The position numbers and the translations under genes are program-made. Positions 19,579-25,677 of a stretch of DNA of 64,000 bases are shown in pieces. The notes beneath the pieces were generated by a model that saw only the letters and a program-made list of their open reading frames with translations, was not told the origin of the DNA and made no database searches. Where the stretch lies: positions 42,006 to 106,005 of the forward strand of contig QHOS01000017.1 in NCBI GenBank assembly GCA_003219415.1, read 5' to 3'. This stretch comes from Verrucomicrobiota bacterium (GTDB lineage Bacteria > Verrucomicrobiota > Verrucomicrobiia > Chthoniobacterales > UBA10450). The first letter of the stretch is position 1, and each line of letters opens with the position of its first letter.

Positions 19579-19686
19579 GTCATCCCGAACGAATGTGAGG
19601 GACCTCCCAAAGGTGATCGACCACGCAGTCTCCTCTGAGTAACGGCGGCTTCGATTGTGTGGTCCTTCGCTTCGCTCAGGATGACC
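19579..19686. repeat. palindromic REP/MITE-like element, family 1 (termini GTCATCCyGArCG...CGyTCrGGATGAC), copy A
   Basis: gtcatcccgaacgaatgtgagggacctc...gtggtccttcgcttcgctcaggatgac. The terminal and subterminal inverted repeats are shared with copy B at 22373-22456. It lies between lgt and uvrA and contains the uvrA stop codon. Confidence 0.75.
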
Positions 19687-22600
19687 GTGCTGTTTTGGCG
19701 CGCGATGCGTCCAAAATCTTTCGCAAAAACGGCGCGGTGCGGCTGACACGGTTCTTTGCAACGTGTTCCGGCGTCCCGCAGGCGACGACTTCGCCTCCAT
19801 CCGCGCCAGCTTCTGGGCCAAGATCAACAATGTAATCGGCCTCTGCGATCACGCTGAGATTGTGCTCGATGACAATTACCGTGTTTCTTTCGTCGACGAG
19901 CCGATGCAGCACGCTGAGAAGCAATTCAATATCGGCCATGTGCAGGCCGATCGTTGGTTCCTCTAGCAAATACAATGTCGAGCCCGGTTTGCGCATTTTG
20001 CGGATCCGCTCGTCGGCCGCCCGACCGACACCACGCTTGAGTTGTGTGACTAGCTTCAGTCGCTGCGCTTCGCCGCCGCTCAGCGTTGGACTCGGTTGTC
20101 CCAGCTTGAGATAGCCTAATCCCGTATCGACCAGCAAAGAAAGCGGCCTCGCAATTTTCGGGTGCGCCGAAAAGAATTCGGCCGCTTCTTCGATCGTCAT
20201 TTCCATCACATCGCCGATCGATTTGTCGTTGTAGAGTACTTCAAGCGTTTGCGGATTGTAACGTTTGCCGCCGCAGTCTTCGCATGGCACGTAGCTGCGC
20301 GGCAGAAAATTCATCTCCAGTTTGATTACGCCCTGACCCTTGCAAGTCTCGCAACGACCACCTTCGGCGTTGAACGAGAATCGACTGGCAGAATATCCGC
20401 GCACACGGGAGACAGGTAATTGCGCGTAAAGATTCCGGATCTCGTCGAACACTTTGACGTAGGTCCCCGGCGTCGAGCGCGATGTCTTACCGATGGGTGA
20501 TTGATCGACCTCATAAACAGCTTCGATCTCTTGCGCGCCACTAACCAGTTTGAATAGATCGCCATTTCCCGCGCGTTTTCTTTGTTTCAGCTGCTCGCAC
20601 ACCGCAGGCCAAATTACCTCGTGCATCAATGTGGATTTGCCGCTGCCGGAAATTCCGGTGATCACTGAAAGCCTGCCAAGAGGGAAACGAACATCGATAT
20701 CTTTCAAATTATTCGCGCTCGCGCCGCGGACTTCGATCCAGTCTCCAACATCGCGTAACGACCGGCGCGATCCGCGGATGGGATGGTGAGATGGCGATTT
20801 CAGGCAGCGCGCCGTTTCTGAATCTGAGTTCCTTTCCACGTCGCGCAGCGTGCCGCTCGCCACGACTTCTCCGCCGTGAATCCCTGCACGCGGTCCAAGA
20901 TCGACGATGTGATCGGCTCGCCGCATGGTTTCCTCATCGTGCTCGACAATAATGAGTGAGTTTCCTTTGTTCCGCAGCGCGGTGAGCGTGTCCAGCAAGC
21001 GCAGGTTATCGCGCGGATGGAGACCGATCGTCGGCTCATCGAGTACGTAAAGGACGCCACGGAGGTTTGAGCCTAACTGCGCAGCCAATCGGATTCGCTG
21101 GGATTCTCCGCCGCTTAAAGTTTTCGCCGAGCGCCCAAGCGCAAGATAGCCAAGGCCCACCTTCTCCATGAAACGCAATCGCTGCTGTATTTCCGGAACG
21201 AGACCGACAGCGATTGTTTGATGCGTTCCCCGGAACTTCAATCTATCAACCTTGCGAGCTGCTTCGCTGGCCGAAAGATTCGTGAATTGATCGATTGTAT
21301 AACCCTGGACACGCACGTGACGCGCCACGGCGTTCAGACGCGAGCCGTGACAACTCGGGCATTCGTGCGCCTCGCCTTCGTCGATCCATTCCGATTCGCG
21401 CTCGGCGGCGAGCTCTGCTTCCAGAACCGATTCACCGTCTGGGTTGGCAGCCGTTTGCAGATCCTGATCCCAGATCTCGCCGAATCCGCCGCATTCTTCA
21501 CACGCGCCGTGAGGCGAATTAAACGAAAACAACCGCGGATCGAGCTCCTCGAATGCGCGGCCACAGTTTGGGCAGCTCATTTCGGTGCTCATGACTGAGA
21601 GCCTGTTTTTTGAATCAAGCAGACGACCCGTGCCGCGGCCGATCTCCAGTGCCCGACGAACGACGTCGCGCGTCTCCGCAATTCGCTTTCGATCGATGAG
21701 ACCAACGACTACATCGATCGTATGCTCTTTGAATCGCTCCAATTTTCGAAAATCCGGGACAGCAACCACTTTCCCATCCACATACAGCGTATCGAATCCC
21801 TGGCGTTCCGCCCATCGCGCGACTTCGGTATGAAAACCTTTTCGAGCCTTGACCAATGGCGCGAGCACTCTCACCGGTCCGCGTTTCGCTGTTGATTCGA
21901 TTTGCTTGGTAATGGCAGCGAGACTTTGTTTCTCCACCGGCAAATTGCAGTCCGGGCAAAACTGCGTCCCGGTTTTTGCGAAAAGCAGCCGAAGAAAGTG
22001 ATAAACCTCTGTCACTGTCGCGACCGTCGATTTACCTCCGCCGCGTGTGACCCGTTGCTCAATCGCGACACTGGGAGGCAGTCCGCTGACTAAATCGACA
22101 TCCGGTTTTTCCAGCTGCTCCACGAATTGCCGTGCATAGGGCGACATGCTGTCGAGGAAACGCCGTTGTCCTTCCGCGAAGAGAATATCAAATGCGAGCG
22201 TAGATTTCCCGGAGCCACTCAGGCCGGTGATAACCACCATTCGTTCCCTCGGGATTTTGACATCGATGTTTTTCAAATTGTGCTCGCGGGCGCCATGGAC
22301 TTGGATTGCGCCATTCACCCGATTTAGTCGAAAACTGGGAGCGTCCTCAGCGGCTCGGGCTATTTCCACCTCGTCATCCTGAGCGTAGGCGAAGGATCCC
22401 TCCAACTCGCGTGCTGCTTTGCGAGGTCCCTCGCCGTCTTTGCGGCTCGGGATGACATGCAGCTTTTTCCGAGGTTGTGTGAACATTTTTTGTAAAAAGT
22501 GTCCGGTGTGTGATGCGCTCGCCTTTGCGATTTGCTCTGGAGTTCCAACCGCCACCACATCGCCGCCGGTGTCTCCGGCGTCGGGGCCAAGATCGACAAT

Positions 22601-25591
22601 CCAATCGGCGCACTTGATCACTTCGAGATTGTGCTCGATCACCATGATGGAATGACCGCGACCGACCAGCCGCTGAAATAGCTGCAGCAGCATCGCCACG
22701 TCATCGAAGTGAAGTCCCGTGGTTGGTTCATCGAAGATAAACAAATTTCCGCGTGGCATCGGCATCCTGCCGGTCGGAAATTGGCCGGAAGCCAATGCCA
22801 CGACGTTTTCTGTTTTGCGCAAATGACCGACCAGTTTGAGACGCTGGGATTCACCACCGGAAAGGGTGTTGAGAGGTTGCCCCAATCGCAGGTACCCGAG
22901 CCCGACTTCCTCAAGCACGCTGAGCGGTTCGGACAGGGTCCTGTCCTCGCCGATTTGCGCGAAAAATTCGATCGATTCGCTTACGGTGAGCTTAAGCAGA
23001 TCGTGGATTGATTTTCCGTGCAGTCGAACTTTCAGAACATGCGGTTGAAATCGTTTGCCTTCGCATTCTGCGCAGCGCACGAAAAGATCGCTTAAAAATT
23101 GCATCTCAATTTTCTCGTATCCTGTGCCGGAGCAACGCTCGCAACGGCCGCTGCCGGAATTAAACGAGAATGTCCCCGCTGTGAGTCCCTGCGACATTGC
23201 TTCCGGTTGAGCGGCGAACAATTCACGAACGCGATCGTAAAGCCCCAGATAAAGCAGCGGCGTTGACCGAGGCGTCCGCGCAAGTGGTGCCTGATCGACC
23301 ATGATCACGTCCCGGATGCGATGCGCGCCGGCGACCGATTTGCACGCGCCGGCCTCTTGATCAGACGACTGCCCCTTCGCGACCAGCAGATTCCGATAGA
23401 GTACATCGTGAATCAGCGTGGATTTCCCGGAACCGGAAACGCCGGTGACACATGTGAATACGCCCAGCGGAAGTTCGACATCGATGTTCTTCAGGTTGTG
23501 TTGTTGCGCGCCGACAATCTTGACGGATGCGAACCATTTTCTCCGCGACTTTGGCACCGAAATCGATTTGCGATTCGTTAGGTAATCACGCGTAAGTGAT
23601 TGGGGAGCGCGGGCGCCTCGCCCGCTCTTTTCGGTGCCCCCGCCGAAAAGACGACCCGTGTCCCGCGAGGCGCGTGACACAGCGGACGAGGCGCCCGCGC
23701 TCCCCAGATTTCCGCCGTCACATTCGAGAAAATCCTCGAGCGCTCCGTTCCAAACTAATTCGCCGCCGTGTTCGCCGCGGCCCGGGCCGATATCGATTAA
23801 ATTGTCAGCAGCGCGAATGATTTGTTCCTCGTGCTCGACCACGAGCAGTGTATTGCCTTTGTCCCGCAAGGTGTGCATCACTCGTACCAGCCGGCCAACG
23901 TCGCGCGGATGCAAACCCACGCTTGGCTCATCCATGACGAACAGCGTGTTGACCAACGATGCACCGAGACATGTTGTGAGGTTCACCCGTTGCACTTCGC
24001 CGCCGCTCAAAGTGCGCGTGGAACGGTCCAGTGTTAGATAGCCAACCCCGACTTCGCAGAGATAATTGAGGCGCGCACAGATTTCGTCGCGCAACATTCG
24101 CCCGGTCGAATCGTTCGACGGAATCTCGATCGCCGTCAGGAAATTGCGGGCATCCAAGATCGAAAGCGCCTGGAATTCGGGAAGCGTCAGCTGCGCCGGC
24201 GCTGTGCGAGGACTGTTCCGGCGGTCACGCACCACCACGACGATTTTATAATTGAGCGCGTCGGGCTGGTATCTTCCCCCGTTGCACCTCGGGCAGGTGA
24301 CGTAAGCCCGATAGCGGCTGAGCAACACCCGCACATGCATCTTGTACGTCTTGCTTTCAAGCCACCGGAAGAAGCCGCGCACCCCATACCAGCGATCATC
24401 TTCGTAATCTTCTCCTGTATAATCGCCTGATCGTTTCTCGCCTTCGATGACGAAGTCCTGGTCGGCCTTCGGCATTTCTTCGAATGGAACGTCGATATCG
24501 ATCTCGTTCCGTGCGCAGGCTCGAAGCAAATCTTTCTGAGATTCGCCAAACTCGGCACCGCGAAAAACGCGCACCACGCCTTGTTTGATGCTAAGACCGC
24601 GATTTGGAATCGCTTTGTTTAGATCGATTGCGATGGTACGACCAAAACCTCGACATTCCGGACACGCACCCAGTGGATTGTTGAAACTGAACAGGCCGGG
24701 TGTAGGCGGGCGAATGTCGAGATCGCAATGCGCACAATGCCACCCGGTGGAGAATGGGAGTTCGTGATCGGGGATCGGTGATTCGTGATCAGTTCTGCGT
24801 TGAAGATTGGGCGTTTGGGGTTGGGCGTTTTGTGAAAGAGCAATAATGTTGATCTTGCCCTTCCCAAAGCGCAGCGCGGTTTCAATTGCCTCGATTAATC
24901 GTGCGCGGTTTTCCTCCGAGATTGCGATGCGATCCTGGATAACCTGCACACGCGCGCCAAGTCGGTTGAACTTTGGATCGACGTCGACGCGTACGATTTG
25001 GTTGTCGATCCAGACGCGCAGGTAACCCTGCTGCTGGAGGAAATCGAAGAACTTCCGCGGGTCAGTCTTCGACGGAACAGGAACCCAGAAAGTGATGAGA
25101 ACAGTTTTCCCAGAGCAGTCGTGCAACACCTGGTGACTAATTGACTGTGCGGTTTCAGGGCGAATTTCCCGGCTGCAGCTCGGACAGAACGCTCGAGCAA
25201 CGCGCGGCCAGAGCAATTTCAGATAATCGTTGATCTCCGTCATCGTGCCGACGCTAGAGCGGGAGCTCTTGACAGGGTTCGCCTGCTCGATGGCAATCGC
25301 GGGAGGGATGCCGCGGATGTCGTCGACGCGCGGCTTGTCCATGCGGTCGAGAAATTGCCGCATATACGGGCTGAATGTTTCGACGTAACGTCGTTGGCCT
25401 TCAGCGTAAATCGTCTCGAACGCCAGACTTGATTTGCCGCTGCCGCTGGGACCTGTGACGACCGTTAATTTCCCCAGGGGAAGATCGACGTCGATTCCTT
25501 TGAGATTGTTCTGACGCGCCCCACGAATCTCAATACAATCCTTCGCGCTCGGCGTTGTGACGCGCTTGTTTTTCGCAATCTTCGAACCCAC
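19676..25591 (-). CDS. uvrA: tandem-fused excinuclease ABC subunit A paralogue (UvrA-UvrA, four ABC ATPase modules)
   Basis: Single 1971-aa ORF. Four Walker A sites ([48 protein letters not shown]) and four LSGGE signatures. UvrA-type Cys4 zinc modules occur in both halves. Each half starts with the UvrA N-terminal pattern (I.I.GAR.[NH]NLK.IDV..P) and ends with a UvrA-type C-terminus (SHTGHFLQKMF / SRTAPFLRKIL). Confidence 0.9.
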   Translation of the reverse strand: MGSKIAKNKRVTTPSAKDCIEIRGARQNNLKGIDVDLPLGKLTVVTGPSGSGKSSLAFETIYAEGQRRYVETFSPYMRQFLDRMDKPRVDDIRGIPPAIAIEQANPVKSSRSSVGTMTEINDYLKLLWPRVARAFCPSCSREIRPETAQSISHQVLHDCSGKTVLITFWVPVPSKTDPRKFFDFLQQQGYLRVWIDNQIVRVDVDPKFNRLGARVQVIQDRIAISEENRARLIEAIETALRFGKGKINIIALSQNAQPQTPNLQRRTDHESPIPDHELPFSTGWHCAHCDLDIRPPTPGLFSFNNPLGACPECRGFGRTIAIDLNKAIPNRGLSIKQGVVRVFRGAEFGESQKDLLRACARNEIDIDVPFEEMPKADQDFVIEGEKRSGDYTGEDYEDDRWYGVRGFFRWLESKTYKMHVRVLLSRYRAYVTCPRCNGGRYQPDALNYKIVVVVRDRRNSPRTAPAQLTLPEFQALSILDARNFLTAIEIPSNDSTGRMLRDEICARLNYLCEVGVGYLTLDRSTRTLSGGEVQRVNLTTCLGASLVNTLFVMDEPSVGLHPRDVGRLVRVMHTLRDKGNTLLVVEHEEQIIRAADNLIDIGPGRGEHGGELVWNGALEDFLECDGGNLGSAGASSAVSRASRDTGRLFGGGTEKSGRGARAPQSLTRDYLTNRKSISVPKSRRKWFASVKIVGAQQHNLKNIDVELPLGVFTCVTGVSGSGKSTLIHDVLYRNLLVAKGQSSDQEAGACKSVAGAHRIRDVIMVDQAPLARTPRSTPLLYLGLYDRVRELFAAQPEAMSQGLTAGTFSFNSGSGRCERCSGTGYEKIEMQFLSDLFVRCAECEGKRFQPHVLKVRLHGKSIHDLLKLTVSESIEFFAQIGEDRTLSEPLSVLEEVGLGYLRLGQPLNTLSGGESQRLKLVGHLRKTENVVALASGQFPTGRMPMPRGNLFIFDEPTTGLHFDDVAMLLQLFQRLVGRGHSIMVIEHNLEVIKCADWIVDLGPDAGDTGGDVVAVGTPEQIAKASASHTGHFLQKMFTQPRKKLHVIPSRKDGEGPRKAARELEGSFAYAQDDEVEIARAAEDAPSFRLNRVNGAIQVHGAREHNLKNIDVKIPRERMVVITGLSGSGKSTLAFDILFAEGQRRFLDSMSPYARQFVEQLEKPDVDLVSGLPPSVAIEQRVTRGGGKSTVATVTEVYHFLRLLFAKTGTQFCPDCNLPVEKQSLAAITKQIESTAKRGPVRVLAPLVKARKGFHTEVARWAERQGFDTLYVDGKVVAVPDFRKLERFKEHTIDVVVGLIDRKRIAETRDVVRRALEIGRGTGRLLDSKNRLSVMSTEMSCPNCGRAFEELDPRLFSFNSPHGACEECGGFGEIWDQDLQTAANPDGESVLEAELAAERESEWIDEGEAHECPSCHGSRLNAVARHVRVQGYTIDQFTNLSASEAARKVDRLKFRGTHQTIAVGLVPEIQQRLRFMEKVGLGYLALGRSAKTLSGGESQRIRLAAQLGSNLRGVLYVLDEPTIGLHPRDNLRLLDTLTALRNKGNSLIIVEHDEETMRRADHIVDLGPRAGIHGGEVVASGTLRDVERNSDSETARCLKSPSHHPIRGSRRSLRDVGDWIEVRGASANNLKDIDVRFPLGRLSVITGISGSGKSTLMHEVIWPAVCEQLKQRKRAGNGDLFKLVSGAQEIEAVYEVDQSPIGKTSRSTPGTYVKVFDEIRNLYAQLPVSRVRGYSASRFSFNAEGGRCETCKGQGVIKLEMNFLPRSYVPCEDCGGKRYNPQTLEVLYNDKSIGDVMEMTIEEAAEFFSAHPKIARPLSLLVDTGLGYLKLGQPSPTLSGGEAQRLKLVTQLKRGVGRAADERIRKMRKPGSTLYLLEEPTIGLHMADIELLLSVLHRLVDERNTVIVIEHNLSVIAEADYIVDLGPEAGADGGEVVACGTPEHVAKNRVSRTAPFLRKILDASRAKTARSS
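22373..22456. repeat. palindromic REP/MITE-like element, family 1, copy B (inside the uvrA-uvrA linker, in frame)
   Basis: gtcatcctgagcgtaggcgaaggatccctc...gaggtccctcgccgtctttgcggctcgggatgac, 84 bp. It is translated on the minus strand as ...HVIPSRKDGEGPRKAARELEGSFAYAQDDE... Confidence 0.75.
23602..23705. repeat. GC-rich palindromic element, family 2 (19-bp perfect terminal inverted repeats), in frame inside uvrA module 1
   Basis: The left arm ggggagcgcgggcgcctcg (23602-23620) is the exact reverse complement of the right arm cgaggcgcccgcgctcccc (23687-23705). There is an inner hairpin cttttcgg/ccgaaaag. It is translated as GSAGASSAVSRASRDTGRLFGGGTEKSGRGARAPQ. Confidence 0.8.
24761..24830. 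repeat. short direct-repeat/low-complexity insert inside uvrA module 1
   Basis: ttcgtgatc occurs at 24761 and 24782, and ttgggcgttt at 24807 and 24821. The region encodes NAQPQTPNLQRRTDHESPIPDHELP. Confidence 0.5.
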
Positions 25592-25639
25592 TGGAAATAT
25601 TCGCTGCCAGTCAAGCAGTTCGCAAATTTTCCGGGCAAA

Positions 25640-25663
25640 GCGGGCGAGGCGCCCGCGCTCCCC
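25640..25663. repeat. solo arm of the family 2 GC-rich palindromic element (intergenic uvrA/pckG)
   Basis: gcgggcgaggcgcccgcgctcccc is the exact 24-nt reverse complement of 23602-23625. Confidence 0.8.
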
Positions 25664-25677
25664 ACGGATTACGAGCT

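Follow-up and report, generated by a model that had tools for sequence, protein, structure and literature searches.

A double-length uvrA gene in “Candidatus Udaeobacter”

The stretch of DNA analyzed here (hereafter the window) comprises 64,000 nucleotides of contig QHOS01000017.1 and belongs to a 3.6-Mb metagenome-assembled genome (MAG), 96.5% complete, of “Candidatus Udaeobacter,” a soil verrucomicrobium (GenBank assembly GCA_003219415.1). Its minus strand carries, at positions 19676 to 25591, a uvrA-uvrA gene in which two UvrA units are encoded by a single open reading frame (ORF) of 1971 codons plus the stop, which begins with GTG and is free of internal stops (Table 1). The fused protein contains four Walker A motifs (amino acids [aa] 47, 717, 1123, and 1646), four LSGGExQR signatures (aa 528, 910, 1492, and 1837), four Walker B motifs (aa 550, 950, 1514, and 1873), and 12 CxxC pairs, equivalent to six Cys4 zinc modules. 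The first-pass annotation had proposed, from the DNA letters alone, that two UvrAs are covalently fused and bring together four nucleotide-binding domains (NBDs). This was borne out, and the uninterrupted frame of 1971 aa, the unit boundaries, and the linker had also been placed correctly.

Against the NCBIfam UvrA equivalog TIGR00630, the fused protein scored 2002.8 bits (cut-off, 729.8), in four stretches covering two units, and against NF001503 it scored 2048.8 bits (cut-off, 1147); these bit scores are sums over the two units. Half 1 is 43% and half 2 is 48% identical to the canonical UvrA of the same genome, while the identity between the two halves is 40%. No stop or frameshift interrupts the linker between them (aa 1036 to 1094; checked over 22320 to 22490), which in other families is ca. 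22 to 28 aa long and free of palindromic inserts. In-frame GTG and TTG codons are present in the linker and were considered as starts of a separate product from half 2, but no support was found for their use.

Table 1. Features of the fused uvrA gene and of its palindromic repeats (window coordinates; residue numbers of the fused protein unless E. coli is named)
Feature	Position	Strand	Basis or remark
Whole fused uvrA-uvrA gene	19676..25591	-	1971 codons + stop, GTG start
Half 1, aa 1-1035: diverged UvrA unit with NBD-I, UvrB-binding domain, insertion domain, and NBD-II	22487..25591	-	Best PDB match 2r6f, 755 bits
Inter-half linker, aa 1036-1094; not UvrA sequence, poorly conserved	22310..22486	-	dN/dS 0.34 vs 0.02-0.11 in domains
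Half 2, aa 1095-1971: UvrA unit nearer canonical UvrA, without insertion domain	19679..22309	-	2r6f, 858 bits; chain residues ~301-414 unmatched
Walker A, half 1 NBD-I (GPSGSGKS, K53)	25430..25453	-	Motif scan
Walker A, half 1 NBD-II (GVSGSGKS, K723)	23420..23443	-	Motif scan
Walker A, half 2 NBD-I (GLSGSGKS, K1129)	22202..22225	-	Motif scan
Walker A, half 2 NBD-II (GISGSGKS, K1652)	20633..20656	-	Motif scan
Half 1 UvrB-binding domain, aa 147-250, with R231 and E237 (E. coli R216 and E222)	24842..25153	-	Pfam PF17760
Half 2 UvrB-binding-domain fold, aa 1222-1321; E and R at the R216 and E222 positions	21629..21928	-	PF17760
Half 1 insertion domain, 119 aa between the cysteine pairs of zinc module 2	24296..24652	-	Partial PF17755 match
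Half 2 insertion-domain remnant, 43 aa between the cysteine pairs of zinc module 2	21368..21496	-	Alignment
Half 1 degenerate DNA-contact patch (PEAMSQGLTAGTFSFN)	23159..23206	-	E. coli R722, R724, R730 replaced by M, Q, T
Half 2 intact DNA-contact arginine patch (PVSRVRGYSASRFSFN)	20369..20416	-	Alignment to E. coli UvrA
Half 2 NBD-II Walker B, Glu for the Walker B Asp (LYLLEEPTIGLH)	19940..19975	-	Conserved in 10/11 verrucomicrobial lineages
84-bp palindromic REP/MITE-like element, translated in frame, inter-half linker	22373..22456	.	14 matches on 13 contigs; hairpin -41.9 kcal/mol
100-bp palindromic repeat, in frame, NBD-I/NBD-II linker of half 1 (aa 631-664)	23601..23700	.	Copies on C58 and C26
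Palindromic repeat overlapping the stop codon of the fused uvrA	19579-19686		

The same architecture recurs in many related genomes. A protein search returned one identical cluster and >120 further clusters of 1909 to 2049 aa, 80 to 94% identical over the whole length; the named clusters among these matches are “excinuclease ABC subunit A/UvrA” of “Ca. Udaeobacter” or Verrucomicrobia MAGs. Within the genus and order, the same four-part match lies in an open frame of 1840 to 2130 aa in nearly all related genomes; over all relatives, the open frames span 1830 to 2130 aa. In our sample of the phylum, the fusion was found in 26 of 30 same-class genomes versus 3 of 60 genomes of other classes. All 11 verrucomicrobial lineages that we extracted have the four Walker A sites in one frame and an open linker.

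The alternative, that two neighboring uvrA-like genes were joined by an error of assembly or sequencing at the linker, or that the gene is a decaying redundant copy, has in our judgment a negligible probability. In its favor, a dispersed palindromic repeat in the linker marks a spot prone to assembly error, and the gene of a few relatives contains frame changes. Yet the frame changes of three relatives fall inside domains, away from the linker, which is open here as in the other lineages, and the purifying selection acting on all domains speaks against decay. Since the same single frame recurs in >120 independent protein clusters and in most genomes of the class, the fusion does not derive from the assembly, and for practical purposes an artefact or a pseudogene is excluded. 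The three relatives (loci L034, L035, and L036, at G018:C6, G014:C9, and G026:C14), whose assemblies consist of few, long contigs, have one to four frame changes within domains of the fused gene; these are either long-read indel errors or signs of gene decay in those lineages.

Complementary losses in the two halves

To map functional residues, E. coli UvrA (NC_000913) was aligned with both halves of the 11 verrucomicrobial fusions, with their canonical UvrAs, and with 10 other double UvrAs. The reference points were taken from the work of Manelyte et al. (2010; PMC3025350) on E. coli UvrA. There, the double mutant R216A/E222A locates the surface through which UvrA interacts with UvrB. DNA binding depends on R712, R722, R724, and R730, and it is abolished, together with all repair, when these four arginines are mutated. 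The Walker A lysines are K37 (proximal) and K646 (distal), and deletion of residues 290 to 400, the insertion domain, weakens damage discrimination.

The Pfam profile of the UvrB-binding domain (PF17760) matches both halves. However, R216/E222 are retained in half 1 of 10 of the 11 lineages and are never both retained in half 2. Whether either half keeps this domain could not be judged by eye in the first-pass annotation, and the answer differs between fold and surface: the fold is present twice, while the residues predicted to contact UvrB are found in half 1 only. The insertion domain is similarly one-sided. Its length across the 11 lineages is 106 to 126 aa in half 1 and 27 to 43 aa in half 2, compared with ca. 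125 aa in E. coli UvrA. The profile PF17755 matches half 1 in part (profile positions 1 to 66 of 110), the Pfam search gave no match to it in half 2, and TIGR00630 positions 306 to 401 are absent from half 2. Two UvrA units are therefore present, as originally described, but they are not both complete, given the 43 aa that half 2 has in place of the insertion domain.

The DNA-contact arginines show the converse distribution. R730 has disappeared from half 1 in all 11 lineages, and R722 and R724 in most of them, whereas half 2 retains all three in eight lineages, including the one studied here. The Walker A lysine, the SG of the signature, the catalytic glutamate, and the H-loop histidine are intact at all four ATPase sites. 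The canonical UvrAs in the alignment have retained R216/E222, the insertion domain, the DNA-contact arginines, and the ATPase residues, apart from the single-unit UvrA of family f17 described below. Because the losses of the two halves are complementary, the chain is best described as a pseudo-heterodimer and not as a pseudo-homodimer; the covalent, dimer-like chain of the first-pass annotation stands.

Evolutionary history and selection

In a maximum-likelihood tree (54 rows and 937 columns, chlamydial double UvrAs not being among the rows), the half 1 sequences of the Verrucomicrobiota all fell into a single clade (support, 100/100), together with half 1 of a Polyangiaceae protein, of a Kinetoplastibacterium protein, and of three unnamed double UvrAs. 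A second, separate clade, also with 100/100 support, was made up of the half 2 sequences, and the branching orders inside the two clades agree. Separate and congruent clades indicate one old fusion that has evolved as a unit since, and the tree fits a single event after which the two halves would have coevolved as one gene. Canonical single-unit UvrAs, E. coli included, grouped apart (96/68). In a planctomycete protein of 2334 aa, on the other hand, the two halves were mutual sisters (100/98) and both have R216/E222 and a full insertion domain, so that the planctomycete fusion reported by Mahajan et al. (PMC8567305) represents a separate, symmetric event. Planctomycete halves paired with one another or fell outside the half 1 and half 2 clades.

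When half 1 was used in an exhaustive profile-free search, >100 clusters (50% identity level) of double-length UvrAs of 1500 to 2340 aa were recovered. The named carriers are Myxococcota, Planctomycetota, Kinetoplastibacterium, and Heimdallarchaeota, all labeled UvrA, from which it follows that the double architecture is widespread and routinely annotated. Several Heimdallarchaeota MAGs encode a double UvrA of 1916 aa with both halves of full length (P0164, P0279, and P0281).

The ratio of nonsynonymous to synonymous substitution rates (dN/dS), calculated between this gene and an orthologue from another genus of the same family with saturated dS, was 0.02 to 0.11 in every folded domain, including the UvrB-binding fold and the insertion remnant of half 2. 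The linkers reached 0.19 to 0.34, and the canonical uvrA had a value of 0.05. By this measure every folded domain appears to be under purifying selection, and none looks free to decay.

Comparison with known UvrAs

Each half is built like the unit of the class I UvrA homodimer (E. coli; G. stearothermophilus, 2r6f/3uwx; T. maritima, 3pih; M. tuberculosis, 3zqj), with two ATP-binding cassette (ABC) NBDs, three zinc modules, and a UvrB-binding-domain fold. The best PDB matches of both halves taken singly are class I structures, and class II chains score lower (541 to 591 bits). However, class I UvrA is a single unit of ca. 940 to 1000 aa that forms a homodimer of identical protomers, while here two diverged units make up one 1971-aa chain. 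Class II UvrAs (D. radiodurans UvrA2, 2vf7; Ecm16, 7sh1; DrrC) resemble the fused protein in being accessory paralogues, of unclear or non-excision role, beside a canonical UvrA, but they are single units without a UvrB-binding domain, unlike the fusion, in which both halves match PF17760.

That duplicated UvrAs are known, as the first-pass annotation had stated, is confirmed by several reports. The double-length UvrA of Planctomycetes, likewise two units fused head to tail and annotated as UvrA, was detected by proteomics (Mahajan et al.; PMC8567305), and a double UvrA is implicit in the 1786 codons of uvrA in C. trachomatis (PMC6686042). The verrucomicrobium Opitutus terrae has two uvrA genes, both with intragenic repetitive extragenic palindromes (REPs) that are translated in frame (Di Nocera et al., 2013; PMC3733652), as in the gene described here; the likeness is by description. 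That study concerns the repeats and does not analyze uvrA architecture or asymmetry. A “separate class” naming of duplicated UvrAs, also mentioned in that annotation, was not found in the literature searched.

Thus, double UvrAs are already annotated and reported, and this gene joins a widespread family annotated as UvrA. The symmetric 2334-aa planctomycete protein, with R216/E222 and a full insertion domain in both halves, differs from the asymmetric fusion found here, and the NCBIfam model for double UvrA (NF001885/PRK00635; 1809 positions) gave 1156.6 bits, below its cut-off of 3054. The fused protein fits an unnamed asymmetric double UvrA family of Verrucomicrobiota and others, defined by the two clades with 100/100 support each and by the residue pattern of 10 other lineages. 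Our search of the literature on duplicated UvrA classes and on UvrA in Udaeobacter and Verrucomicrobia found no study of this family, functional or otherwise, in line with the initial statement that its roles are uncharacterized.

A putative single-chain, asymmetric damage sensor

We lean, if only slightly, toward the view that the fused protein amounts to a UvrA dimer in a single chain, with permanent asymmetry, and serves as a second damage-sensing ABC ATPase beside the canonical UvrA. Under this model, the halves would pair within the chain as the two protomers do in the UvrA2 dimer, and DNA would be bound mainly via half 2, while the single insertion domain of half 1 would clamp the DNA or discriminate damage. 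Half 1 would then pass the site to one UvrB only, or meet Mfd, giving a sensor-UvrB complex of 1:1 rather than 2:2 with a built-in polarity. Judging from the residues retained, the chain probably docks one UvrB, and its four ATPase sites are potentially active. A bolder version, which we regard as rather doubtful, is a truly one-sided UvrA that loads exactly one UvrB at a fixed side of the lesion or serves Mfd alone. If this were true, it would give excision repair a polarity that is absent from the symmetric UvrA2B2, and two damage sensors that differ in mechanism would operate side by side in the Verrucomicrobia.

Several points weigh against the asymmetric-sensor model. The residue-level reasoning is transferred from E. 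coli mutants through an alignment of sequences that are 40 to 48% identical. AlphaFold2 models of each half, built from alignments of 22 close orthologues, had a mean predicted local distance difference test (pLDDT) score of 41.3 and 37.9 and were unusable. The dN/dS values are rough because dS is saturated. Besides, a complete canonical UvrA in the same genome makes the fusion dispensable for basic excision repair, and no conserved operon partner of the fused uvrA was found, since the arrangement lgt-fusion-pckG is kept only within the taxonomic family.

The main rival is a UvrB-independent accessory ATPase, similar to class II proteins (UvrA2, DrrC, and Ecm16), that would scan DNA and clear intercalating or cross-linking compounds, or confer tolerance to them, without excision. 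The full canonical UvrA, which already covers excision repair, would agree with such a role, as would the absence of the UvrB-contact residues and of the insertion domain from half 2; moreover, class II UvrAs occur alongside UvrA and are able to work in the absence of UvrB or UvrC (Ecm16 preprint). We consider this unlikely, however, given that class II UvrAs lack the UvrB-binding domain (PMC3167621), yet PF17760 is matched in both halves, that R216/E222 of half 1 are conserved across lineages in a domain under purifying selection, and that the gene is located among housekeeping genes and not in a biosynthetic cluster. Still less probable, in our view, is a UvrA devoted to transcription-coupled repair, whose lone docking surface would be used by Mfd and not for global search. 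The same domain of E. coli UvrA is believed to be the binding site of Mfd, transcription-coupled repair leans less on the insertion domain and on damage recognition by UvrA (both PMC3025350), and mfd is present in the genome. But mfd is unlinked, on a different contig, half 1 still has its insertion domain, and the idea is purely inferential. The asymmetric sensor remains the reading that we prefer to either of these.

How the UvrA dimer divides labor between its protomers and among its four ATPase sites is still debated, and this is hard to study because a homodimer is not easily mutated on one side. The family described here would be a natural single-chain UvrA whose functions have already been separated by evolution. 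With UvrB or Mfd docking and the insertion domain assigned to half 1 and the DNA-contact arginines to half 2, it offers a tool for asymmetric mechanistic studies, and we see the main value of the finding in this natural asymmetric UvrA. The family is also common among the Verrucomicrobiota of soil, the very abundant “Ca. Udaeobacter” being one of them, where it stands beside a normal UvrA as an unexplained second repair sensor. For annotation purposes, the fused gene should not be read as the sole or standard uvrA of the organism.

In-frame palindromic repeats

Three palindromic repeats of 84 to 108 bp, which resemble REPs or miniature inverted-repeat transposable elements (MITEs), are translated in the frame of the fused uvrA, one of them overlapping the stop codon (Table 1). 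Their predicted hairpins range from -42 to -68 kcal/mol, and up to 13 other contigs contain copies. One arm of the 100-bp repeat is also found upstream of the gene, at 25639 to 25664. Close orthologues have more palindromic inserts at other loop positions. In five of the proteins (P0015, P0044, P0054, P0059, and P0073), an insert reading ...CHSERSEAKRNEVEESL...SLRSAQDDK... lies inside the UvrB-binding domain of half 1.

Genomic context and the canonical uvrA

The fused gene has lgt, exbB-exbD-tonB, pckG, and sufCBD as neighbors. Within the 64-kb window there is no uvrB, uvrC, canonical uvrA, or mfd. The earlier statement that no uvrB or uvrC lies nearby thus holds: uvrC is on contig C40, and uvrB is divided between two contig ends (C168:28-1227 and C140:194-1012), so that the gene is interrupted by an assembly break. 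Also mfd is in the genome, on a different contig from the fused gene. The search for a canonical uvrA found one on contig C160, at 1348 bits and over the full length of the model, which makes the fused gene a paralogue, as had been supposed. Contamination as the source of the canonical copy was ruled out, both genes being present in nearly every genome of the order.

Upstream of the two uvrA genes there is no LexA-type box, taking TGTTC-N4-GAACA to be the verrucomicrobial motif; two hits with one mismatch in the window are at chance level.

The canonical uvrA (C160:21075-23960; locus L001) encodes a protein without cysteines at the four positions of zinc module 1, which are occupied by D, T, N, and T. 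The same Cys-less module appears in several related lineages, while the fusion halves keep all six Cys4 modules. A different situation is found in family f17 of the same class (locus L018, G107:C1:1684800-1688200, and relatives), whose single-unit UvrA has an insertion domain cut to 12 aa and a Q at the E222 position. The fusion of this family retains R216/E222 in half 1, and it may be this fused protein that acts as the main sensor there.

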